DNA of 64,000 nt from Escherichia phage FFH2: sequence record KJ190158; one strand, written 5' to 3'. The notes below the pieces were generated by a model that worked only from the letters and a program-made list of their open reading frames with translations, was not told the DNA's origin and made no database searches. Shown piece after piece: positions 38,036 through 57,675 of this stretch; the first letter of the stretch is position 1; each line of letters opens with the position of its first letter. A program made the position numbers and the translations under genes.

Positions 38036-38659
38036 TTATGAAAAACTCATCTCTCCATATTCATCTACATCAAACCGCCAATCATTGGCCTCAATAAGGC
38101 CGATCAGGTTTTCGGTAGTGAACTGCTCTAGATAGGCCTCCTCCAGGTCTACGTAAACCTTGCGGGATAGCTCCCGTACCGTCTCGGTGATCAGCTCTTC
38201 CAGGTCTTCCACTTTGTTTTCTTGTTTGGCGGTCAGATCTAGCCAGGTGGTATCAATGTATCCGCTTACAGTGTTTTCATGGCTGTAATGGCTGTACTTG
38301 TCGCGTTCAATACTGGCTGATAACTCGCCATCGTGCATTGTGCCGAACAAGTGACGAATTGATCGGAACTTGGTCAGGGCCTTTACTTTACGCAAGAATT
38401 TTTCTAAATCCACGTTTTCAGCACTGATTGACGCGCCGTCACCCTGGCACCAAAAGCCGGACCAATGTACATCGGTATCTTCAAGGCCGTACTCTGGAAA
38501 AACTTGTTCTTTATAATATTCAATTACACTTTCTGCGAAAAAATCCTCTCCGCTGTGTTCTTCTCTTTCGCGGACCATTTCAATAGCTTTTTCTTTTTGT
38601 TCGTCGGTCAGCACGTCGAAAGATAAATTGCAACCTGTGGTAATGTTAACGGTGGTCAT
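38036..38659 (-). CDS. hypothetical strongly acidic protein (207 aa)
   Basis: RBS aggagaaaat; very high Asp/Glu content. Confidence 0.5.
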   Translation of the reverse strand: MTTVNITTGCNLSFDVLTDEQKEKAIEMVREREEHSGEDFFAESVIEYYKEQVFPEYGLEDTDVHWSGFWCQGDGASISAENVDLEKFLRKVKALTKFRSIRHLFGTMHDGELSASIERDKYSHYSHENTVSGYIDTTWLDLTAKQENKVEDLEELITETVRELSRKVYVDLEEAYLEQFTTENLIGLIEANDWRFDVDEYGEMSFS

Positions 38660-38733
38660 GATATTTTCTCCTGTTTTCTTTGTTAGTGGCGGGAAGTTTT
38701 CCCGCCTGTGTGTTTAATTATACTTATTGAGAT

Positions 38734-38994
38734 TTACTTGTCAACACTATTTTTTAAATTATTGTGGCGCAAAATGTTTAAAATCTCTTCAACGTCATCA
38801 ACACGGCGGCAATTTTTAAACGCTACCAATTGCCCCATGATTTTAATCACTGGGCGGCCTTGCCAGTGCCCCTGGAGAAAGCGCGCCTTGACTTTATCGG
38901 TGGGACTATCACGCCACCAAATGGCCTTGTTATTGCAGTAGTAAAAATTATTCAGGACAATATCAACTTTATCAAAATTTTTTAATTTACGCAT
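38734..38994 (-). CDS. hypothetical basic protein
   Basis: RBS aaggagtaaac. Confidence 0.45.
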   Translation of the reverse strand: MRKLKNFDKVDIVLNNFYYCNNKAIWWRDSPTDKVKARFLQGHWQGRPVIKIMGQLVAFKNCRRVDDVEEILNILRHNNLKNSVDK

Positions 38995-39239
38995 AGTGTT
39001 TACTCCTTCCTTCTTGCTTTGATGTGGTTAGTATATCCGGACTATTCCAAGGTGTCAAGCTTTAAATAAAATCACTGTCAATGATATTTTTAACACCATA
39101 AAACGGCCCTAGGCGATGTTTTCAGGTTAATAAAGGGGATTGCATAGGTAGGGGCTTTTGTGGCGTTTGTGGGGCCAACCAGGGGCGCTATTCGTAGGAT
39201 AGAAATAAAAAGCCCCGCACAATGGCGGGGCGTTGGTTG

Positions 39240-39437
39240 CTATTTGTCTTTGTGGCGGTATCGTTCCGCCTGTCGTTCACGTTCCAAAAGCAGGCCCGGT
39301 AATTTGCGATCATAGTGATTTCTCCAGATCTTCCCGAACCTTTTCGGTTTATTCAGTTTATTGTTACGCTGGCGGCGTTCCGGCAGCTCTTCGGAATCGT
39401 GGGGGCGCTTTACAATTTTTTCGAAATTAATTTTCAT
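39240..39437 (-). CDS. hypothetical basic protein
   Basis: ATG 39437 after aagggggcg. Confidence 0.4.
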   Translation of the reverse strand: MKINFEKIVKRPHDSEELPERRQRNNKLNKPKRFGKIWRNHYDRKLPGLLLERERQAERYRHKDK

Positions 39438-39780
39438 AAACGCCCCCTTTACTGATCTCAATATTTGCCTGAATCGCCCGGATACGACGTTTTATAGTCT
39501 CCTGATCCTTGCAATCATATCCCCAAAAGTCTACGATTTTTGCGCCGCCAGCCTTTAAGCGGTATAATGTTTCTTGCATCTTGTAAGCTGGGATCGGTCT
39601 CGGTGTTACCTGGTCCCCTTTCCCATCCTTGTACTTGATAATGTAGTCTTCGTTGTCGTTGAATACCCAAAATGGGTATTCTGTAAGCGCGTTGCTCTCT
39701 TTTTCGTTTTTGGATTGGATCTTGTTTACAATTAAAGCCGTAGCAATAGCGCCAATAATAAAACTTGCCCCGCTGATCAT
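39427..39780 (-). CDS. hypothetical protein with N-terminal TM helix
   Basis: ATG 39780 after aaaggagaaag. Confidence 0.45.
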   Translation of the reverse strand: MISGASFIIGAIATALIVNKIQSKNEKESNALTEYPFWVFNDNEDYIIKYKDGKGDQVTPRPIPAYKMQETLYRLKAGGAKIVDFWGYDCKDQETIKRRIRAIQANIEISKGGVYEN

Positions 39781-39856
39781 GTTACTTTCTCCTTTCATTG
39801 TGCTGATAAACTATCTTTATAGATGGCCCTGCCACCAGGACCACCGAAAAAACAGT

Positions 39857-40102
39857 TTATTTGACGATACCGACAAAACAGATCCCGCCTTCCCCTATAT
39901 AGGCAATATCGGTAATTTTATAATTTGTCAAGATCCGCGTGTTCAGATCATTAATAAAATCGGTCATCGCGTTGGTGTAGTTGTCTTCCGTGTCTAAGGC
40001 ATAATCCCAGGTGTAAACCTTTTTACGTCCGAAGCCTTTTACCATGATACGGGCGCTTTTGGTGTTGGTAGGGGCATAATATTTGGTAATTAGTGCGGCC
40101 AT
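39857..40102 (-). CDS. hypothetical protein
   Basis: RBS agaggag. Confidence 0.45.
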   Translation of the reverse strand: MAALITKYYAPTNTKSARIMVKGFGRKKVYTWDYALDTEDNYTNAMTDFINDLNTRILTNYKITDIAYIGEGGICFVGIVK

Positions 40103-40191
40103 TGTTTTAACTCCTCTATATTAGTTCAGTGTTAACAGTGTAAAGTTTACTTTATTGATGGCCCTGGAGTCAAGGCCATCTAAAAATAAAT

Positions 40192-40533
40192 TTACTCGTT
40201 TTCTTCCAGTTCTGCAAGCTCTTCTTTCACTTCTTCAAGCTCTGTCTGTAATTCTTGGTATTCTTCATCGTCCTCAATATCCAGGCTGTCGATGTAGTCG
40301 CTAAATCCGCAGCGGTAAGCGATAGGATCTAGCTCCTTGAGGATACGCGACGGAAGAAAAGAAATGTTTCCGATCATAATTTCGCCGTAGATCTCGTCTA
40401 ACCATTCATCATAGTTTTCGTCGTACTTGTCCTCGTCGATTTCAAAGTTATCGATCTTATTCTCAAGGTCTGCGATCTGTTTTTTCAGCGCGGCGATCTG
40501 CATGGCTTTTTCTGCGGCGGTCATAGTAGTCAT
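40192..40533 (-). CDS. hypothetical acidic coiled-coil protein
   Basis: RBS aaaggagaaaac. Confidence 0.45.
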   Translation of the reverse strand: MTTMTAAEKAMQIAALKKQIADLENKIDNFEIDEDKYDENYDEWLDEIYGEIMIGNISFLPSRILKELDPIAYRCGFSDYIDSLDIEDDEEYQELQTELEEVKEELAELEENE

Positions 40534-40611
40534 GGTGTTTTCTCCTTTTGTGTGTTCTGGGAAGTTTTCCCGTTTATGTGTTTAGTATACTGATCTAAGT
40601 TAGCTTGTCAA

Positions 40612-40731
40612 TTAAAAGTTTAAGAAAAATTTTGCGATACCGTTGGCGCTACCCATCAACATTTGCGCCAGGATGTAACCAATGATGCAAACGATAATAG
40701 TTACCTTTGTGTGCTGGCGTGTAGTACTCAT
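40612..40731 (-). CDS. Small membrane peptide (39 aa)
   Basis: Strong RBS aaaaggagg; MSTTRQHTKVTIIVCIIGYILAQMLMGSANGIAKFFLNF. Confidence 0.4.
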   Translation of the reverse strand: MSTTRQHTKVTIIVCIIGYILAQMLMGSANGIAKFFLNF

Positions 40732-45054: not shown

Positions 45055-45552
45055 TCAACACTTTTTGTACTCCACCACGATAATATCCATATCAAAAGTG
45101 GCAAGGTTAATAACGTCCTCTACGTGCTCCCACTTCAAACCGCCTATGCCGCACCCGATCTTAGGGATGTAGAATGGTAAAGTCGATCCACTGAATACCT
45201 CATTGACTAGCTCAAAGCCTTTCAGGATTGAGAAATATTCAGCATTAGGTCCTGGGTAGAACTGAGTATACAGATTGATTCCGTAGACAATACCTCTCGG
45301 AGATAAGTGCTCCCATCGGGAGAACGCACCCAGTTTACTTAGGCAACCATGTCTGGTCTCTTTGTCAGCTGCCAATGCTTGAGGGAACTCACGGGCAATC
45401 TGTTTTGCTATCCCCTTGCCCATTGTGTGGAAGCAGTTACAACCGTGGATCAGGTGACCAGCACCACTCTTAAAAAGGGAGATTAAATCTCCCTCTACAG
45501 TATCAATAATCACGGTATGCCAGCTCCTCTTCCACAATTTCAAAAAACTCAT
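45055..45552 (-). CDS. Macro-domain protein (ADP-ribose binding/processing)
   Basis: GDLISLF..HGCNCFHTMGKGIAKQI and IPKIGCGIGG fit macro-domain Gly-rich motifs; start ATG 45552 assumed. Confidence 0.55.
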   Translation of the reverse strand: MSFLKLWKRSWHTVIIDTVEGDLISLFKSGAGHLIHGCNCFHTMGKGIAKQIAREFPQALAADKETRHGCLSKLGAFSRWEHLSPRGIVYGINLYTQFYPGPNAEYFSILKGFELVNEVFSGSTLPFYIPKIGCGIGGLKWEHVEDVINLATFDMDIIVVEYKKC

Positions 45553-45928
45553 CCCAACCTTGTGGCATATTTGAGTTACCGAAGTGGCTTTCATAGTAAA
45601 GGTTCTTACCGCTAGGAAGGTAGAAATCTGTTACCTCATAAAATCCACAATCGTCGCACTCACCTTCTTCAAACTTGGCCTTAACCTTAATACCGAGGAA
45701 GGTGAAAAGTTTATGGACATCTTCAGTTTCGAACTCCCAGGGAATGTTGTTTTCCGCATCGGTGTAGAACTGGATCAGCAGACCATTGTCCAGTTTACCA
45801 AAATACTCTGTGAAGTAACTTCCTTCCCAGAAATCTTTATGACAAATAATATCCATGCGTTTGCCCATAATAATGGTGTGAGCGTTTTGGGCATCGTCAC
45901 GAATCAGTTTTGGCATTTCATAGATCAT
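45503..45928 (-). CDS. hypothetical acidic protein
   Basis: ORF; overlaps macro-domain start. Confidence 0.45.
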   Translation of the reverse strand: MIYEMPKLIRDDAQNAHTIIMGKRMDIICHKDFWEGSYFTEYFGKLDNGLLIQFYTDAENNIPWEFETEDVHKLFTFLGIKVKAKFEEGECDDCGFYEVTDFYLPSGKNLYYESHFGNSNMPQGWDEFFEIVEEELAYRDY

Positions 45929-46721: not shown

Positions 46722-46754
46722 TATACAAAAATGCCCCACCCTTTCGGGCAGGGC
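46722..46754 (-). terminator. Intrinsic terminator gccctgccc-gaaa-gggtggggc plus T-run
   Basis: 9-bp stem with GAAA tetraloop followed by attttt after SSB stop; identical copy at 58445-58474. Confidence 0.6.
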
Positions 46755-46769
46755 TATGTTAACTAGATG

Positions 46770-47996
46770 TTAAAACGGTATGTCATCATCAAAGGCGTAC
46801 TGTGCTGGATTCTGATCCATCGGGTCATCTTCCTCATCATTTACAGGAGGAGCGTCTACAGTGTTTTGCTGTGGAGCTGCTTCCTGTTTGGCAGCCTGAG
46901 GTTCTTGATGGTCAGTTGACCCAGCACCGTTCTTGATCCAATCGTACAACGGCTCAGCCAGATTAGTCAAGACATCTTTTGCTTCTGCAGTAATTGCCAC
47001 TGCAAAATCATCAACTTTCGTTTTCTTGTCAATACGGCGACAAGCGTTCAACACCGCATTACCGACACTGGCACCTACTTCATCTTCAGTTCGGTTGGTG
47101 GCTTGAGCATACTCTTTCTTAAGCTCAATGGTGACTACGTGCAGTGTTTTAGCCACTCCCAGTGGGTCGTCTACCTTAAACCCGCGATCCAGGATGATCT
47201 GCAACGCATTGATGCTATGCCCCGTTTCCACACCGATAGGGTCGTAAGAGGATTTACGCTTGCCACCAGATCCTTGAGTGCCGTTCTCTGCCTTAGGGGG
47301 ATAGGCCTTGAAACCACTGATAATGTTTCCGGTGTCTTTGTCAACAATGGCTGCAACACGACCACCTACCACCAGGTCTTTAAGCTGCTCATCAGTTACA
47401 ACCATAGCACCTTCGCCAATCTTGTGGTCATTAACAGTAACCACGTTGCCAACAATCTGAGTCACATCACCATAGATGCGTAAAACGTCCTGATTGGCAT
47501 TCTGCTGAGGTTTCTGCTTCTGGCCTTGTGATTGTGCACCTTGTTGCTGTTTTTGCTGCTGAGTCGCTGCTGGAGCCTCTCCTGCACCCAGCTTAACCAT
47601 CTTAGCCAGTGAGCCCTTGTAATAGGTCTTACCGTTATGCTCGTTTGCCTTCAAAGGGATATTTACGATCCATCCTGGCGTTACGGTTTCCCACTTGTCA
47701 TCAATCTTAACAGAGACAGAGTCTTGATGACCTGGTTTAAGCAGCTTATCACCCATGCTGATCCAGACTTCTTCACCACCTTGAAGCAGGTTATCAGAGG
47801 AATCCAGTTCAGAAATCAGTAAAGAGATGGTGTGGCTGGATTCAATTTTCTTACCTTGCCACACAGTGGTTTTAATACCTGTTGTAGGATCAGCACCTTT
47901 AATAGGCTTGATGCTAACACGTTTAATCATGCCGTGAGCTAGTAAAACAGTTTCACGCGGATTCATTGGGTTAGCGAATTGTTGAATAACGCTCAT
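46770..47996 (-). CDS. ssb: ssDNA-binding protein with SSB-type acidic C-terminal tail
   Basis: Ends DDDIPF identical to E. coli SSB tail; Gln/Gly-rich linker; N-terminal domain not assigned. Confidence 0.6.
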   Translation of the reverse strand: MSVIQQFANPMNPRETVLLAHGMIKRVSIKPIKGADPTTGIKTTVWQGKKIESSHTISLLISELDSSDNLLQGGEEVWISMGDKLLKPGHQDSVSVKIDDKWETVTPGWIVNIPLKANEHNGKTYYKGSLAKMVKLGAGEAPAATQQQKQQQGAQSQGQKQKPQQNANQDVLRIYGDVTQIVGNVVTVNDHKIGEGAMVVTDEQLKDLVVGGRVAAIVDKDTGNIISGFKAYPPKAENGTQGSGGKRKSSYDPIGVETGHSINALQIILDRGFKVDDPLGVAKTLHVVTIELKKEYAQATNRTEDEVGASVGNAVLNACRRIDKKTKVDDFAVAITAEAKDVLTNLAEPLYDWIKNGAGSTDHQEPQAAKQEAAPQQNTVDAPPVNDEEDDPMDQNPAQYAFDDDIPF

Positions 47997-48361
47997 TATT
48001 TGTCTCCTTGTTCTTCGTTAGTGCTTGCCGTGTGTGCGAACCCTGCTTGAATTAATTTGTCCTGAACTTGAGCCAACAGGCCCATTGCAAAACTTGTGGT
48101 CCCAGAGAGGGCCATCAGCATATCCCGTTGTTGAGCTACCCAACCTAAGGCATAGTCCAAACGACGATATTTTTCTTCTTCACGCAGAGCCTGAAATAAT
48201 TGTTCAGCCTCCGGTTGTTGTGTGAGCTCCTGAAGTCTTCCCATGAAAGAAGAAAGCACTAGCAAAAGAGACACTTGATCTTTACTTAACCCTAAGAAAA
48301 ATTCTTGAGGTTGTTCTTGCTCGTTCATCGCAACCGACTCTTGATCGTTCATTTGTTCCAT
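47996..48361 (-). CDS. hypothetical protein
   Basis: Stop overlaps SSB start. Confidence 0.45.
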   Translation of the reverse strand: MEQMNDQESVAMNEQEQPQEFFLGLSKDQVSLLLVLSSFMGRLQELTQQPEAEQLFQALREEEKYRRLDYALGWVAQQRDMLMALSGTTSFAMGLLAQVQDKLIQAGFAHTASTNEEQGDK

Positions 48362-51186: not shown

Positions 51187-51540
51187 TTAGTGACAATCAC
51201 CCCAATTACGACCACACAAGTATTCACCTGTGATCTGGAACGGGACTCCCATCATTTTAGAAGCTTGCCAGAAGCAATGTACCACCATTTCGCCCACAGG
51301 ACTCCAGATAAGTTCAAGCTTTCCGTCATCGTTCAAGATAGGATCGTACACCGTGTTTCCGTCTCTGTCAACCACTTCGTTTCCGTCCTCATCCTTGCGT
51401 GCCTTTTTGTACTTATGACCGTCGAACACATGAAGTTTGGCCTCCTGCTCTGCCTTAAATGCTTCCAGTTCTTCGATTGTGTCGAAGGTGTACACAGTCT
51501 TATACTTCGGTGTGTCAGGGACTTGAAGCTGATATTCATC
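51187..51540 (-). CDS. DNA polymerase family A, exon 2 (C-terminal, begins DE of motif C)
   Basis: Begins DEYQLQV completing YYH-DE; ends GRNWGDCH like T7 pol terminal GPNWAICH. Confidence 0.75.
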   Translation of the reverse strand, partial: DEYQLQVPDTPKYKTVYTFDTIEELEAFKAEQEAKLHVFDGHKYKKARKDEDGNEVVDRDGNTVYDPILNDDGKLELIWSPVGEMVVHCFWQASKMMGVPFQITGEYLCGRNWGDCH

Positions 51541-52383
51541 CATCTGTTCAGGTAGGTCGTTAAGCTACCCCGCACCATTACGTGCATAGCCATACAGTTT
51601 CCTGTATGGATCGGACTACCTCACTGCCTTGGTAACAAGGCACCTCCCATTTCGACCGCACTTGCTGGCCTACTCTACTCGCTTCTTCACACCAACCTAT
51701 GTTGGAGCTATGCTTTCGATAGTCTCTGAACGTTACTACCAGGTGTAGTTTTTAGAGATATGTTTCCACTGTCTTCTTTGCTTTATAGCCCTGACGGTCT
51801 CATAAGGATATCCAAGATCCCTAATCTCGCATTGTCGTAGACCACTCTGCAACAGTTCGCAAATCTCTATTACCTCATCTTCTGTCAGCACAGCGTTAGC
51901 ATTATACTCACCAACTGGCCTTACTCTGAGGTCATTATCATAGGCGTGCTTGATATTTCCACCAGGGGTGGTCCATTCTAGGTTCCAGTATGCATTGTTG
52001 TACTTATTCCCATCCTTATGGTTCACCCATGTGAGTCTTTCAGGATCTGGGTTTGATACAAAGCATTCAGCAACCAGGTGGTGGACACCTTTTGTGCACT
52101 GCTTCCCCTCGATTAGCATGGTTACGCAAAGGTAACCTCTACCATTATCAAAACAAAACATTGTTGTATGATCACGTTTCGATAAAGGTATTGTTCCATC
52201 ATCAAACACGGTATACCCGTGATAATCAGCTGTTCTAGCCATTTTAACTACACCCCTTTAGTCTTCGCTGCGGATTAGCATATTGAGCTTTTACCATACT
52301 CAGGTGTAAAAGTCAACTTAGCTTCCCCGTCAATTAAAGAGGTTATTCGACATAGATTACTCTATGAAGCCACAATGTTATTT
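51541..52383 (-). mobile_element. Group I intron in DNA polymerase gene, carrying an HNH homing endonuclease ORF
   Basis: Insert splits HDE motif; exon 1 ends on U, insert ends on G; agacta/tagtc P7-like pair in 195-nt 3' core. Confidence 0.7.
51736..52242 (-). CDS. HNH homing endonuclease (intron-encoded)
   Basis: VNHKDGNKYNNAYWNLEWTTPGGNIKH HNH motif; RBS aaagggg. Confidence 0.7.
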   Translation of the reverse strand: MARTADYHGYTVFDDGTIPLSKRDHTTMFCFDNGRGYLCVTMLIEGKQCTKGVHHLVAECFVSNPDPERLTWVNHKDGNKYNNAYWNLEWTTPGGNIKHAYDNDLRVRPVGEYNANAVLTEDEVIEICELLQSGLRQCEIRDLGYPYETVRAIKQRRQWKHISKNYTW

Positions 52384-54807
52384 ATGGTAATAAATAATAC
52401 GACGAACACCTTCATCGTACCACCCACGCTTCACCATTTGGTGGTGCATGAGTATCCCAACTAAGTCACACAACGATGCACCACCATTTTGTTGGTATGC
52501 ATTAAGTAAAGAGTGTTTAGATCGGGTCCAGATGGCATGACCATCAAAAGAGTAGATAAACTTCTTACCCGTTGCTTCCCAGAATTTCTCCAGATCCTCT
52601 TTACGGCCCTTAAGACCAGGGTTGGCATCCCAAAGCGCATCGATTACCCTTTGTCCCAACTCTGGAGAGATGTCCAGCATATCTGCAACTTTATCTTTTT
52701 GTGCCCCGTACATAACCCCATACGTGATAGGTTTACCGTCGTTACGGGACACCTCTCTGCCTGCTACTTTTGTATATGCCTCAGCATTGTTTTGGTGTGC
52801 GTCTCCGTTACTTACAACATCATAATACAAGCCGTTGTCGAACTCAAAGGCACCCCAAGCCCCGATAAGCTGCTCTAAGTTGGACCCGTCAATACCGATC
52901 TCAAAGTATCCAGGAGGAACACCCCACAGACTACGCATCTCTTTACCCATAACCACTTTAGGAGATGGTTTAGGCATGTTTGCACAAATACTGTGTTTCT
53001 GTCTGGAAGTGTTTGTTAATCCAGAGCTTTTAGCAGGAAGCTTATGGTCAATCTTCAAACGTGGGTGATTAAGAAGACCAGTGTCAACCTTATCCTCCTT
53101 GATTGGATCAAGTACCGATCTGCGGTTTCGCAATGATAACCATAAGACGATATCTTTAGCCATCTCTCCGTTCAATTTTTCAAGATTCGGACACAGGTGT
53201 CCAAACGTATCTTTCAGTTGCGGAGAAGTAATAAGTGCCCTAGCTTTTCTACGTATTTTCCCGAATACTTCCTTTTTAATCCTTTCGGAGTTAGGAAAGC
53301 TTCGGAACTTGTGCACTGTTGTCTGAAACTTAGCATCAGTTTTGTTCCAGAAGTTGATAATTAGGTCACAATACTCTGACTCTAAAAGCTCGTCCATGTA
53401 TGCATATACTCGTGCATCAACATCTGCATCAGGTAGAGCTTTCTTCTTGCTGTCTTTAGTTACATCCTTAGTTCTCCACATTGTCGGAAGCCAACCAGCA
53501 CTGATCAGGTATCGCTTAATGTCGTCCTGATTGCTGATTTTCATAGGTATCTTGCAGTCAGGCATTCGCTTCTGCTGCAGATCGCTTATTGCCTGATCCA
53601 TCAGCTCTTTAGGCAAAGGTTGTGGTGTGGAGGTGCCCTTAATATAGCCTCTCAAGAAATCAGCCATCTTATCGTGGTCTTTGCAGCCCATCTCTTCACA
53701 CCATTTTATCCCCATTTTACTGACATCTCCTGTGGAGGTAAATGCTCGCTTAGGTGGGGCTTTGAACTCTAAAGCGCTCATGTCTACAGGATAGCCAAGC
53801 TTATCTTTTAACCATTTCCAACCATTATTGGAGATTGTCCCATCTTGGTTAAACGGCTTTTCAGGGAACTTGGGCCGCTGAGACATTGACAGCTCTTTTA
53901 AAGGTAGTTGTGGTTCAACACGATCAGCTATTTCTTTCATCCACGCATCGCAACGGTCACGTAAAGCAATAGCCCCGTCTATGTCGAAATACACACCCTG
54001 ACGGGCCTGCAGCTCCATCAGGAAGTGCTGCAGCATGCCTCGACGTAGTGCGTTCTTCCAGGTGATCTTCTTGAACCCTTTCGGCTTCTCTTTGGCTGGA
54101 TCGTACATAAAGTTCTGCATGTCAGATTTGCCGTAGAATACACCTTTTGATTCCGCTACCAGCTCTTTCCAGAGCAGCTCCTGGATGATAACGTCCTCGA
54201 ATACACGATCCACATACTTCCACAACGGAAGATCGCGCCAGTCATCAATTTGAACTTTCTGGTTACCAAGGGCGTAGCCCCATGCCATAAGGCCGTGAGG
54301 ACCAACAGGCTGCATTTTCTTAGTAACCGGGTTGAATACAGAGTCCGGACAACCTTTTGGTAAAGGGCGATCAGGCCACAAGATTCGGCTCATCGCCAAC
54401 GTATCAAACAGGTTAACCTGGTGGTCGTTGATAGTCCCCATACATTTAGGATCACGGAACATATCAAAATGAATACCGGATAATCTCTCCATCAGCATAA
54501 AGTCATAACTGTAGCAGTTATGGCAGTTCAAAGCTGTTGGTGACCAGTCGGAATTGCCTGTAAGCCAACCCTCCAACTCCGAAAAATCTGCTATGCGAAC
54601 TTCAAAATCCTTATAAAGAGTTTTCTTTGCCAGAATAAAGTTCTTAGCCTTCTCTATATCCTCCTCGGAGTAGTGTGTGCGGTCATTTAGAGGAAGGAAC
54701 AGCATAAAACGGTTCTTATTCAGCTCTTTAAACAGGCCGCAATGATAATAAAGATCTGGGTCTTCCAAAAGCCCTGAGGCCTCCAGATCGAAGCACCAAT
54801 TACTCAT
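52384..54807 (-). CDS. DNA polymerase family A, exon 1 (3'-5' exo and polymerase motifs A/B)
   Basis: Exo I CFDLEASG; motif B KPITYGVMYGAQ; region QQNGGASLCDLVGIL..KRGWYDEG aligns with T7 pol just upstream of HDE. Confidence 0.8.
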
Positions 54808-55538
54808 ACTGTCTCCTCCTGTGTCTTCTCAGCATTCTTTCTTGCAGCTATTGCATCGTCCCTGTTCTTGAAATACCCAAGGCATTTCCTTTTACCATCT
54901 ACATGAATTCTGGCTACCCATCTTTCATGGGTTTTATCCCAATTCACCCCTGAGCAACCGCTGGTGTTATTATACTGCACGGCTCTTCCACTCTTGTGCG
55001 AAAAACCATTATCTTCGAAGAACTTTCTTGCCCACTCTGCCTCTTCAAAAGTTCTGTACTGGCCTAGCCAGACCCTTTCACCTACAGAGTCTGTGCCTTG
55101 AGCTACCCATGCCCCTCTTTCTTCAGAATAGTGCACCCCGACCCTGCCAGATTTGTTGTTGCTACGAGGTATCTTGCAACTTTTCTTTTTGTTATCTGTA
55201 GGTTCGAGTAGTTGCAAATTATGAATACTGTTGTCAGCCACACCACCTGTTTCCCTTATCTCCTTGATGTGGTCAACCTCATACCCTTCCGGTACAGGAC
55301 CGTTAAACATTTCCCAGATTATAACGTGGGCACCTTTAGTGCAATGCTTTCCTAGACTAACCACAGGCCTGCCATCAGCATCTTGCCCCTTGTCAGCTCT
55401 GGAGCCTGCTGAAGTTTTAACATATCCTACACCGCTGCCTGCCAGAATGTCTATCTTCCAAAAAAGATTTTGACCGTCATACTCCAATATTTCTGACCAC
55501 AAGTGATTAGCTACACAGTGATCTCTGAACTCGTTCAT
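54804..55538 (-). CDS. Free-standing HNH endonuclease with AP2-like DNA-binding repeats
   Basis: YEVDHIKEIRETGGVADNSIHNLQLL HNH; two GV(H/N)..ERG/W..WVA AP2-like repeats. Confidence 0.65.
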   Translation of the reverse strand: MNEFRDHCVANHLWSEILEYDGQNLFWKIDILAGSGVGYVKTSAGSRADKGQDADGRPVVSLGKHCTKGAHVIIWEMFNGPVPEGYEVDHIKEIRETGGVADNSIHNLQLLEPTDNKKKSCKIPRSNNKSGRVGVHYSEERGAWVAQGTDSVGERVWLGQYRTFEEAEWARKFFEDNGFSHKSGRAVQYNNTSGCSGVNWDKTHERWVARIHVDGKRKCLGYFKNRDDAIAARKNAEKTQEETV

Positions 55539-55596
55539 AAAGTGTTCTCCTTAAAGGGGAGGCGGTTGTACTACCCCTCCCACTCTTTGTTAAACA

Positions 55597-57675
55597 TTAA
55601 AAAGGTGTTTCATCATCCTCAAAACCAGGGACCGGATCAGAGGATGGATCATCGTATTGGAGGTCTTCCTGCGTGTCAATAGGCTTGACAGTGGGTGTTA
55701 CAACCTTATCAGCCACAACCTTGCCCATAGGTGTTTCTACAACTGCATGCTCTTGATCCTCAAACATAGCCTGAGGTCTCCAAACAACCTCCCCACCTTC
55801 TCCGTCTGTAAACATTTGCATTTCTTTGTCCCAGTACCAATTACTGGCATCATGGAACTTACCTGTGTGCGGGTCCATAACTAAAGTGTCAGCAATACCT
55901 AAAGTTTTTGCTGGACGGTTCTTAAGACCTACCAGACGGACACGTCCACGAGAACGATCCACCATTTCTTCGGCCTCGACACCTATGACTACCCAACTCA
56001 ACTGTTCAAGCCCAGCCGATCCTCGCAAATTCTCTTTTCGCACAGGATACCAGAAAGGTAACGGGTTACCATCTTTGTCCTTAGGAGGCACAATCTCTGT
56101 ACGTTTGAGGTGAGCGATCACCAAGATAAACACGTTAAACTGCTTACAAAACGCAGCCAGTTGGGTCATAGCCATGTCCAGTTCTTTTCGCTCATCCTTA
56201 ACATTAAGCCCTGAAATTACCATGGACAGGTGATCCAGCACAATATAACGACAATAGTACAGGCAAACCATTTGCTTAAGCTTGGTAATCAACTCGTCCA
56301 CCGGAATAGACCCGAAATGTTTGAACACTTTGATTTTTCCAGCTTTTGCCCATGATTGGTGAATCTCTGCGTGTTCTTGATCAGTTAAAAACTGGCTAGG
56401 ATCTTCAACAAACTCTTTAACATCAAACCCTAACTGGTTTGCATACAAGGAGTTAATTGCTTCCTCTGGATCCTCCTCAAGATGGATCATGCATAGACGA
56501 TCATCCTCTTCATAGTCATCGGCCTTCGGGCATGTCGGGTCCATTAAGTATCTTGCAATACAGTGTTCCAGTTTTTTAGCCACGGTTGTTTTACCGCCGC
56601 CTGATGGACCTGTAAGCATTACGAGTGTCCCTTTGTGCAAGCCTTTTAGCATTTTTTGCAGTTTTGGGAACTCTGCACTGATATCTACCCCGTTGGAAGT
56701 CTTTTTCCGCAAAGACTCGATAGAGAAGTCTTCTAAATCCGACACAGCATCAGGCACATATTTAACAGGGTGCCGGAACATGTTGACAATATCTTCCAGC
56801 TTTTTAGCCTTCAGCATGTCTCGGATATCTTTTACACCGTCAGGGTCATTTACTTCACCAGGGTATTCTACGTGGTAAACGTTATCAGCCATCAAAAATG
56901 CTGCGATATTGTGCGTGGCCTCAACACCTTTAATGACGTGTTTTTGCTTCTCTACCTCGTTAGCTGCATCGTTATCCATTGCCAGCACAACTGTTCCATA
57001 GCTACGGATAAACTTCTCATTGTTTGCAAAAGTATCTACTGCGTTTGCACATCCACAGTTAATTCCAACAAAAGGCAGGCAGGGTTTTCCTGCCAGATCA
57101 CCACCGTTGATAACTGCGTCGATCCCGTCCTGGACCTCTTTAGCCCACTGCTTCACCTTTGCCGGGGCTTTAGCGTTGGTGAGAATCCCTTTTACTTGTA
57201 TCTGATATGCAGCCTGCCATGCTGCAATAACATCACCTTCTCCCTCACAAACGTTAATCTGCTTACGGTTGTTGGAAGATGCACACAGCTTTTGACCAAA
57301 CATCTGGGAGTTGGCCTTTACGATGCCAACAACGGAGAAATGGCCCCTTTGCTCTTTAGGAATAGTCCAGTCACGCTTTTTGAAACCAGACAGATTTCCG
57401 TAGCGGTCGTAATATGGGAAATATGTTGCAGTGACTGTCACACCGTCTTCTTGGGACAATGCTGATCGCACACCAAAATATTGTGCAGCCATCAGACCGA
57501 TATTTTGTTGTGGGACAGGGACAATTTTAGTATTTTCTAAAACAGTCTCTACAGTTTCAACTTCTTTTTCATCACGATAGTCTCGTTTCACACTTCCCCC
57601 ACTTTTATACTTAGTTGCTTTCGGGTTTGGCTCACCGAAACGGTTGTATGCAGATGCCATAAATTTACTTCCCAT
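55597..57675 (-). CDS. Primase-helicase (T7 gp4-like)
   Basis: Walker A LTGPSGGGKTT in C-terminal helicase half; N-terminal primase-like half; start may be ATG 57660. Confidence 0.75.
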   Translation of the reverse strand: MGSKFMASAYNRFGEPNPKATKYKSGGSVKRDYRDEKEVETVETVLENTKIVPVPQQNIGLMAAQYFGVRSALSQEDGVTVTATYFPYYDRYGNLSGFKKRDWTIPKEQRGHFSVVGIVKANSQMFGQKLCASSNNRKQINVCEGEGDVIAAWQAAYQIQVKGILTNAKAPAKVKQWAKEVQDGIDAVINGGDLAGKPCLPFVGINCGCANAVDTFANNEKFIRSYGTVVLAMDNDAANEVEKQKHVIKGVEATHNIAAFLMADNVYHVEYPGEVNDPDGVKDIRDMLKAKKLEDIVNMFRHPVKYVPDAVSDLEDFSIESLRKKTSNGVDISAEFPKLQKMLKGLHKGTLVMLTGPSGGGKTTVAKKLEHCIARYLMDPTCPKADDYEEDDRLCMIHLEEDPEEAINSLYANQLGFDVKEFVEDPSQFLTDQEHAEIHQSWAKAGKIKVFKHFGSIPVDELITKLKQMVCLYYCRYIVLDHLSMVISGLNVKDERKELDMAMTQLAAFCKQFNVFILVIAHLKRTEIVPPKDKDGNPLPFWYPVRKENLRGSAGLEQLSWVVIGVEAEEMVDRSRGRVRLVGLKNRPAKTLGIADTLVMDPHTGKFHDASNWYWDKEMQMFTDGEGGEVVWRPQAMFEDQEHAVVETPMGKVVADKVVTPTVKPIDTQEDLQYDDPSSDPVPGFEDDETPF

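Follow-up and report, generated by a model that had tools for sequence, protein, structure and literature searches.

The locus

The DNA analysed here (“the window”) is a stretch of 64,000 nucleotides from Escherichia phage FFH2 (sequence record KJ190158), an rV5-like Vequintavirus. The gene of interest, which is listed with its domains and principal neighbours in Table 1, is an open reading frame (ORF) with an ATG start that encodes 408 amino acids, the coordinates in the table including the stop codon. An earlier note had proposed an ORF of this length at this position without giving its strand; the frame is real, and it lies on the minus strand. A strong Shine-Dalgarno sequence (AAGGAG) is found 8 nt 5' of the ATG, which itself overlaps the stop codon of an upstream ORF of 121 aa (TAATG), and the two genes are likely to be co-transcribed. 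A promoter-like site at 48434-48406, with only a weak match to the consensus, lies 5' of the 121-aa ORF. A conserved two-gene module formed with the upstream ORF was considered and ruled out, since the ORFs preceding the gene in rV5 and its homolog in phage ESCO5 are dissimilar, no similarity having been found between the 121-aa ORF and its positional counterpart in ESCO5.

At the other end of the gene, the stop codon TAA directly follows the codon for Phe408 (46770-46775) and is itself followed by a terminator-like hairpin and by the ribosome-binding site of the next gene. The carboxylate of this phenylalanine is therefore the true C-terminus of the protein. A hidden C-terminal extension reached by readthrough or frameshifting was rejected, because no frame encodes one.

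Table 1. Features of the SSB-like gene and of its replication neighbours, in window coordinates
Feature	Residues	Position	Strand	Basis
Terminator-like hairpin (9-bp stem, 7 GC pairs, then T-run; begins 16 nt past the stop)		46733..46754	-	
Whole gene, 408-aa SSB-like protein (PHROG 4477)	1-408	46770..47996	-	ORF and translation; profile match
Acidic tip YAFDDDIPF (SSB-Ct type), free C-terminal Phe	400-408	46773..46799	-	Identity to E. coli SSB; conservation
Disordered acidic Q/P-rich linker	358-399	46800..46925	-	pLDDT <50; net charge -9
Four-helix bundle (predicted)	250-357	46926..47249	-	AlphaFold2; most conserved part of family
Short Gly/Lys-rich linker	238-249	47250..47285	-	pLDDT <50; composition
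OB2, minimal five-strand OB barrel (predicted)	169-237	47286..47492	-	AlphaFold2
Internal disordered Gln-rich linker (12 Q of 27)	142-168	47493..47573	-	pLDDT <50; composition
OB1, all-beta OB fold (predicted)	1-141	47574..47996	-	AlphaFold2
Upstream 121-aa ORF, without Pfam match		47996..48361	-	Stop overlaps ATG of SSB-like gene
Family-A DNA polymerase gene		51187..54807	-	DNA_pol_A Pfam match on 809-aa ORF; collinear with 925-aa PolA of KP869112
DnaB-type helicase-primase, 692 aa		55597..57675	-	ORF; Pfam DnaB_C/AAA_25 on identical protein

E. coli O157 typing phage 14 encodes the identical protein (AKE47163.1; 100%), and the copy in phage rV5 (V5) has 99.3% identity to it. Of 291 phage records, essentially all label the protein “hypothetical”, and in one Vequintavirus record (PV763136) every CDS carries this label. 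Matches were also obtained in 17 records named “Campylobacter phage”, among them MG065635.1, MG065654.1, MG065655.1 and MG065662.1, whose copies are 98.8-100% identical to the coliphage protein and whose genomes are rV5-sized (135-141 kb); near-identical copies in genomes of this size suggest that the hosts are mislabelled or that coliphage was carried over during isolation.

Family membership and sequence searches

The protein is a full-length match to phrog_4477, a family of unknown function (E = 2.8e-173; residues 1-408 on positions 1-393 of the 393-position profile). A profile search of 1.84 billion cluster representatives returned 252 relatives, 169 of them at E <= 1e-10, where each representative stands for a cluster at 50% identity. 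By length, the members of the family fall into long forms (345-420 aa) and many short forms (260-300 aa), the latter without the middle domain. All of the ten short-form relatives that were tested match phrog_4477, most of them via the half that contains the helical bundle and the tail, and two of them (P0076 and P0081) via the N-terminal domain as well. One short form, the homolog of ESCO5 (Phapecoctavirus), has 295 aa, ends in EPPMDFDDDIPF and has been labelled “single-stranded DNA-binding protein” by its depositors.

No relationship to canonical SSBs was detected outside the tail. A Pfam search with the protein gave no domain, the SSB family PF00436 being absent at E <= 1, and PF00436 matched none of 35 family members at E <= 0.1. 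Searches of the PDB (phmmer/hmmsearch) found no sequence relative of the protein apart from the tail, and the family profile matched E. coli-type SSB chains solely via the tail ...PPMDFDDDIPF, at non-significant E values (0.36-0.68). When OB1 or OB2 was compared by hhalign with an alignment of canonical SSBs, the probability was below 1%. Significant E values in a viral fold library were obtained solely with uncharacterised members of the family, and no description of the PHROG 4477 family was found in the literature. The view, expressed in the earlier note, that the N-terminal part does not resemble a standard SSB is thus borne out at the level of sequence, by the Pfam and hhalign results, but not at the level of the predicted fold, which is of the OB type.

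Predicted domain architecture

The AlphaFold2 model of the protein, which was built with a 35-sequence family alignment and in which the fragment 169-360 was re-modelled (pLDDT 88), contains three confident domains with disordered segments between them. The predicted OB1 and OB2 are of the RPA/SSB structural type, so that the OB-fold core of a canonical SSB appears in the predicted structure, and conserved aromatic and lysine positions are present in the predicted OB folds. OB1 is proposed to be the main domain for binding single-stranded DNA (ssDNA). OB2 is confined to the long-form members of the family, the short forms having one OB fold only, and it is net acidic; for both of these reasons it is regarded only as a possible contributor to DNA binding. 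No relationship between OB1 and OB2 was detectable by hhalign, and the Gln-rich linker which joins them differs in both sequence and length across the family.

The most conserved motif of the family sits in the four-helix bundle and not in the OB folds (D252, G255, G259-H260, N263, H286, T289, K293, G308 and G312). In the enterobacterial members, a ligand or metal might be bound by His260, His286 and Cys319, all three of which are replaced in distant short forms. A search for a specific structural relative of the bundle found none, the matches being to generic helical bundles; a role in oligomerisation or partner binding is proposed for it.

The SSB of phage N4 activates transcription by E. 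coli RNA polymerase, and if the bundle of the present protein contacted RNA polymerase or a sigma factor, then the protein would be a dual-function SSB which also activates phage transcription. Such a role, which would be an addition to SSB activity and no alternative to it, is extremely improbable: the similarities of the bundle are generic (5-12% identity) and mixed with unrelated helical proteins, and by sequence, Pfam searches connected the protein neither with sigma factors nor with N4 SSB.

The C-terminal tail

The translation of the gene ends in ...NPAQYAFDDDIPF*, and the tail peptide with F408 at its end reads ...PAQYAFDDDIPF. The last seven residues, FDDDIPF, are the same as the C-terminus of E. 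coli SSB, which confirms the host SSB tail DDDIPF recognised in the earlier note and extends the identity to seven residues. The same note had described a Gln-rich linker before the tail. This description holds in part: the strongest glutamine stretch is the internal linker between the OB folds, while the 42 residues which do precede the tip (358-399) contain 7 Q, 6 P and 10 D+E and form a mixed Q/P/acidic segment. The AlphaFold2 model has pLDDT below 50 at residues 362-404, where a disordered acidic segment runs into the tip, and the protein thus presents a disordered linker followed by ...DDDIPF at the true C-terminus. In a tblastn search of the window with E. coli SSB, this tail with its linker gave the sole match (E = 0.003). 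Among the real ORFs of the window, none but this one has an acidic end of the form [IVLMF]PF.

The tail is conserved well beyond the close relatives of the window protein. Pro407 and Phe408 are invariant in the 35-sequence family alignment, which reaches down to 22% identity, and an [IVLMFA]PF end after an acidic run is found in 105 of the best 146 of the 252 representatives, the remaining ends among these 146 being mostly fragments or near-variants (IPFN, LPW, LDF). In several family members, from enterobacterial phages, the identity to E. coli SSB extends over the final 12 residues, EPPMDFDDDIPF. Judged from these alignments, the tail is a hallmark of the family and no chance feature.

The replication neighbourhood

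The genes on the same strand have the order, from 5' to 3', RecD-like helicase, methyltransferases, DnaB-type helicase-primase, family-A DNA polymerase, about ten small ORFs and the SSB-like gene. The short-form homolog of ESCO5 also lies downstream of the polymerase. On metagenomic contigs which carry a family member 24% identical to the query (L013/L014), the order is helicase (DnaB_C), DNA_pol_A, two small ORFs and the homolog, followed by ThyX and RNR genes. On contigs with a member 26% identical (L011/L012), the homolog lies downstream of a helicase-primase, HNH and GIY-YIG endonuclease genes and two ORFs without Pfam match, and no polymerase was identified at that locus.

No CDS annotated as an SSB is present in positions 5300-131952 of the 131952-bp genome KP869112 (96% of the genome), and a tblastn search of the same positions with E. 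coli SSB again matched only the tail of the target gene. A phage equipped with a polymerase, a helicase-primase, ligases and nucleotide-metabolism genes of its own would be expected to have an SSB as well, and the 408-aa protein is the sole candidate found.

A different role has to be weighed against this. Conservation within the family is highest in the bundle, and RecO-like matches were obtained; on these grounds, the protein might not coat DNA at all, and might instead act as an adaptor of the replisome or of recombination (as helicase loader or recombination mediator) in which the OB folds and the bundle bind proteins or junctions and the tail plugs into the phage and host SSB network. Such an adaptor is unlikely, because RecO-type mediators bind the SSB tail and do not carry one, because the predicted OB and helical domains are set apart by disordered linkers and not packed together, and because an OB core followed by a long acidic linker and an SSB-Ct tip is the layout of an SSB. 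It would also leave a phage that has its own polymerase and helicase-primase with no recognisable SSB.

Insertions and other genes near the locus

The PolA gene of the window is split by an 843-bp insertion (51541-52383, minus strand) relative to the uninterrupted gene of KP869112, which results in ORFs of 809 aa and 118 aa. The 118-aa C-terminal PolA ORF (51187-51543) ends in ...H, as do other PolAs. The insertion carries a 168-aa HNH-like ORF (51736-52242). Its 5' edge (52164-52393) gives a full-length match to the Rfam group I intron which stays below threshold (26.8 bits, the gathering score being 50; E = 1.8e-4), and the element is probably a homing endonuclease borne on an intron. A further insertion of 776 bp (54768-55543, minus strand), which replaces 45 bp of KP869112, separates the helicase-primase gene from PolA. 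Its ORF at 54804-55538 (minus strand) encodes a 244-aa protein with HNH_3 and AP2 matches, a free-standing endonuclease of the homing type, and HNH genes occur at the same helicase/PolA junction in the metagenomic relatives L011 and L015.

The terminase large-subunit gene of KP869112 is annotated as two “terminase-like” CDSs split by a “recombination endonuclease VII” gene (38242-40672; L008 32943-35373), and a second gene with this annotation lies at 55360-55965 of KP869112, which corresponds to about 123-728 of the window. The rV5-like phages appear to be heavily colonised by endonucleases of the endonuclease VII type. A few genes downstream of the SSB-like gene, a 179-aa ORF (45055-45594, minus strand) corresponds to the “macro domain protein” of KP869112 (ECTP14_02390); going by this sequence assignment, it may bind or remove ADP-ribose, possibly as a counter-defence protein.

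A second acidic tail on the helicase-primase

A genome-wide scan for acidic, aromatic-terminated C-termini found a second tail of related type, on the helicase-primase, whose sequence ends in ...PVPGFEDDETPF (...GFEDDETPF; 55600-55626, minus strand). An acidic stretch with an x-P-F end is present in 112 of 120 helicase-primase homologs, down to 42% identity, examples being FDNDTPF, DLDSDSPF and EDDEPF. The helicases on the distant contigs end in ...VVDF and ...PETF, and PolA adjoins the helicase on L013. Acidic tails which terminate in phenylalanine are therefore found on both the SSB-like protein and the helicase-primase, with a family-A polymerase encoded alongside, which is the T7-type arrangement. 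In phage T7, the tails of gp2.5 and gp4 dock on the T7 DNA polymerase; the gp5 structure 6P7E contains a tail peptide of gp4 (DTDF), which guided the placement of the gp2.5 tail (PMC12339929). The helicase-primase of the window is proposed to follow the same docking principle.

Since the helicase-primase has a similar, conserved acidic x-P-F tail and a family-A polymerase is encoded nearby, the phage polymerase or helicase is probably a further docking partner for the tip of the SSB-like protein; the family-A polymerase is the partner proposed, and by analogy with T7 the tail probably serves contacts within the phage replisome too. The mimicry of the host envisaged in the earlier note is to this extent too narrow an account of the tail, because the phage's own helicase-primase bears one like it. 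The identity of the tip to that of the host, which spans 7-12 residues across the family, nevertheless exceeds the generic “acidic plus Phe” character of the helicase tail, and this argues that host SSB partners are addressed as well.

The same closeness to the host, which extends to seven residues for the window protein and to 12 for enterobacterial-phage relatives, would also be expected of a decoy, that is, of a protein which titrates or redirects ExoI, RecQ, PriA, the chi subunit and other partners of the host SSB tail, or which blunts defences that monitor SSB or ssDNA, and for which ssDNA binding is secondary or absent. A decoy is very unlikely. It would have no need for two OB folds with conserved aromatic and lysine positions, or for a conserved slot beside the polymerase in very divergent phages, and canonical phage and plasmid SSBs (those of mEp235 and a Vibrio phage) bear the same tail as working SSBs.

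An extension after the terminal phenylalanine in some relatives

In some relatives the terminal ...IPF or ...TPF is followed by an extension of about 15 aa, AP[IV]GLQYxxxx[IV][YH]xL, which is absent from the window gene. Its bearers, divergent members of the family among them, include P0001 (the largest cluster, with 533 sequences), P0006, P0019, P0044, P0048, P0051, P0070, P0102, P0228 and P0236. The extension also ends the canonical OB-fold SSBs of two unrelated phages, mEp235 (in the variant APVTLPFPRHAIHAI; L004 1375-1881) and Vibrio phage BT-1011 (L005 1333-1881), as well as two helicase-primase homologs. Partners of the SSB-Ct bind the carboxylate of the phenylalanine, and an extension would bury or mask that group.

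The uncapped allele, of the rV5 type, ends in ...CCGTTTTAA, and its capped counterpart is that of rV5_ev158 (L003 2524-3161), in which the extension comes from a 638-bp “endonuclease VII” cassette placed precisely at the junction of Phe codon and stop codon, with the ATG of the endonuclease lying within the extension in a different frame. An endonuclease gene adjoins the extension in three of six neighbourhoods (rV5_ev158, Mt1B1_P17 (L006 949-2347) and the helicase P0236) and is absent in the other three (mEp235, Vibrio phage BT-1011 and P0048). As a strict rule, the explanation of the extension as a mere by-product of a downstream homing endonuclease was therefore rejected, since it fails for these last three; it is also contradicted by the helicase of the window, which has an HNH neighbour yet no extension.

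Proposed function

The gene most probably encodes the replicative ssDNA-binding protein of its rV5-like phage, a non-canonical SSB whose tail would dock phage partners, host partners or both. This reading is favoured because two OB folds are predicted, because the gene has a conserved position in the replication module, and because no other SSB is annotated in 96% of the genome. Of the two options which the earlier note left side by side, a phage SSB and a different protein that mimics the SSB tail, the first is thus preferred on the grounds of predicted fold and synteny, and because those parts of the genome that were examined contain no other recognisable SSB; the second is the less likely. 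The note had also named a canonical OB-fold SSB as the finding that would count against it. The fold is indeed OB by prediction, while the sequence family, the tandem OB folds with a four-helix bundle and the two disordered linkers are non-canonical, so that what the gene encodes is most likely a familiar kind of protein in an unusual form, SSB-like by function and outside PF00436.

On the mechanism, we infer ssDNA binding, an oligomeric state and the tail contacts as follows. OB1, possibly together with OB2 in the long forms, would coat ssDNA at the phage replication fork by means of the conserved aromatic and lysine residues, and the four-helix bundle would self-associate or bind a phage partner. 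At the end of the long, acidic and disordered linker, the FDDDIPF tip, with its free Phe carboxylate, would be presented as a docking peptide for the phage polymerase or helicase and for host SSB-interacting proteins, which a tip identical to the E. coli SSB-Ct should be able to engage. In the absence of DNA, the acidic linker may fold back on the DNA-binding surface, as has been proposed for the tails of E. coli SSB and HK620 SSB (PMC5928155).

A more far-reaching version of this proposal, to which only a low probability is assigned, would make the protein the hub of a tail-coded replisome, in which partners from the phage and from the host read one acidic x-P-F peptide that the helicase-primase bears too, the cap after the phenylalanine in related phages switches the tail off or re-addresses it, and the bundle is a new module for partner binding or regulation. 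If this were true, then the tail cap would be a previously undescribed way of modulating SSB-Ct signalling.

Significance

An SSB function is the expected one, and some depositors already label short-form relatives “SSB”. The assignment of PHROG 4477 as a family of non-canonical SSBs, with tandem OB folds, a bundle and a host-type tail, would fill a gap in the replisome of the Vequintavirinae and Stephanstirmvirinae, which are common in biocontrol and therapy against E. coli, Salmonella and Klebsiella and whose SSB is “hypothetical” in most of the records examined; the gain in annotation would amount to roughly 250 protein clusters at 50% identity. Phage SSBs have been reported as triggers of bacterial defence systems, and the identity of the SSB gene matters for the reading of defence-escape mutants. 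The protein also offers a tractable system for asking whether an SSB tail identical to that of the host serves host partners, the phage polymerase and helicase, or both.

Comparison with known systems

The protein of the window resembles the E. coli-type SSBs (PF00436, including phage and plasmid copies such as that of mEp235) in its predicted OB core, its disordered Q/P-rich acidic linker, its FDDDIPF tip with a free Phe carboxylate and its replication context. It differs from them in that its OB domains are without detectable sequence homology to theirs, in that there are two OB folds per chain with a Gln-rich linker between them, in that an extra, highly conserved four-helix bundle is predicted between the OB folds and the tail, and in size (408 aa, as against about 170-180 aa). 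Several OB folds per chain are also found in eukaryotic and archaeal RPA and in the two-OB SSBs of Deinococcus-Thermus, but there is no sequence relationship to these proteins, and unlike in such multi-OB SSBs, OB1 and OB2 show no detectable relationship to each other by hhalign, are joined by a long disordered linker and are reduced to one OB in the short forms. To our knowledge, no characterised SSB combines tandem OB folds with a Gln-rich linker, a conserved four-helix bundle and a host-identical tail.

The likeness to the T7 system of gp2.5, gp4 and gp5 lies in the occurrence of acidic tails with a terminal phenylalanine on both an SSB-type protein, here with a predicted OB core, and a helicase-primase, with a family-A polymerase alongside. 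The divergent SSB of phage HK620 is a distant homolog of canonical SSB which elutes at ~95 kDa, the monomer being of 21 kDa, and for the recruitment of the phage partner Sak4 on ssDNA it requires its last six residues, which are SSB-Ct-like (PMC5928155). It thus provides a precedent for the use of a host-like tail in phage-internal contacts, but within a recombination module, as against the PolA and helicase-primase module in which the present protein is encoded.
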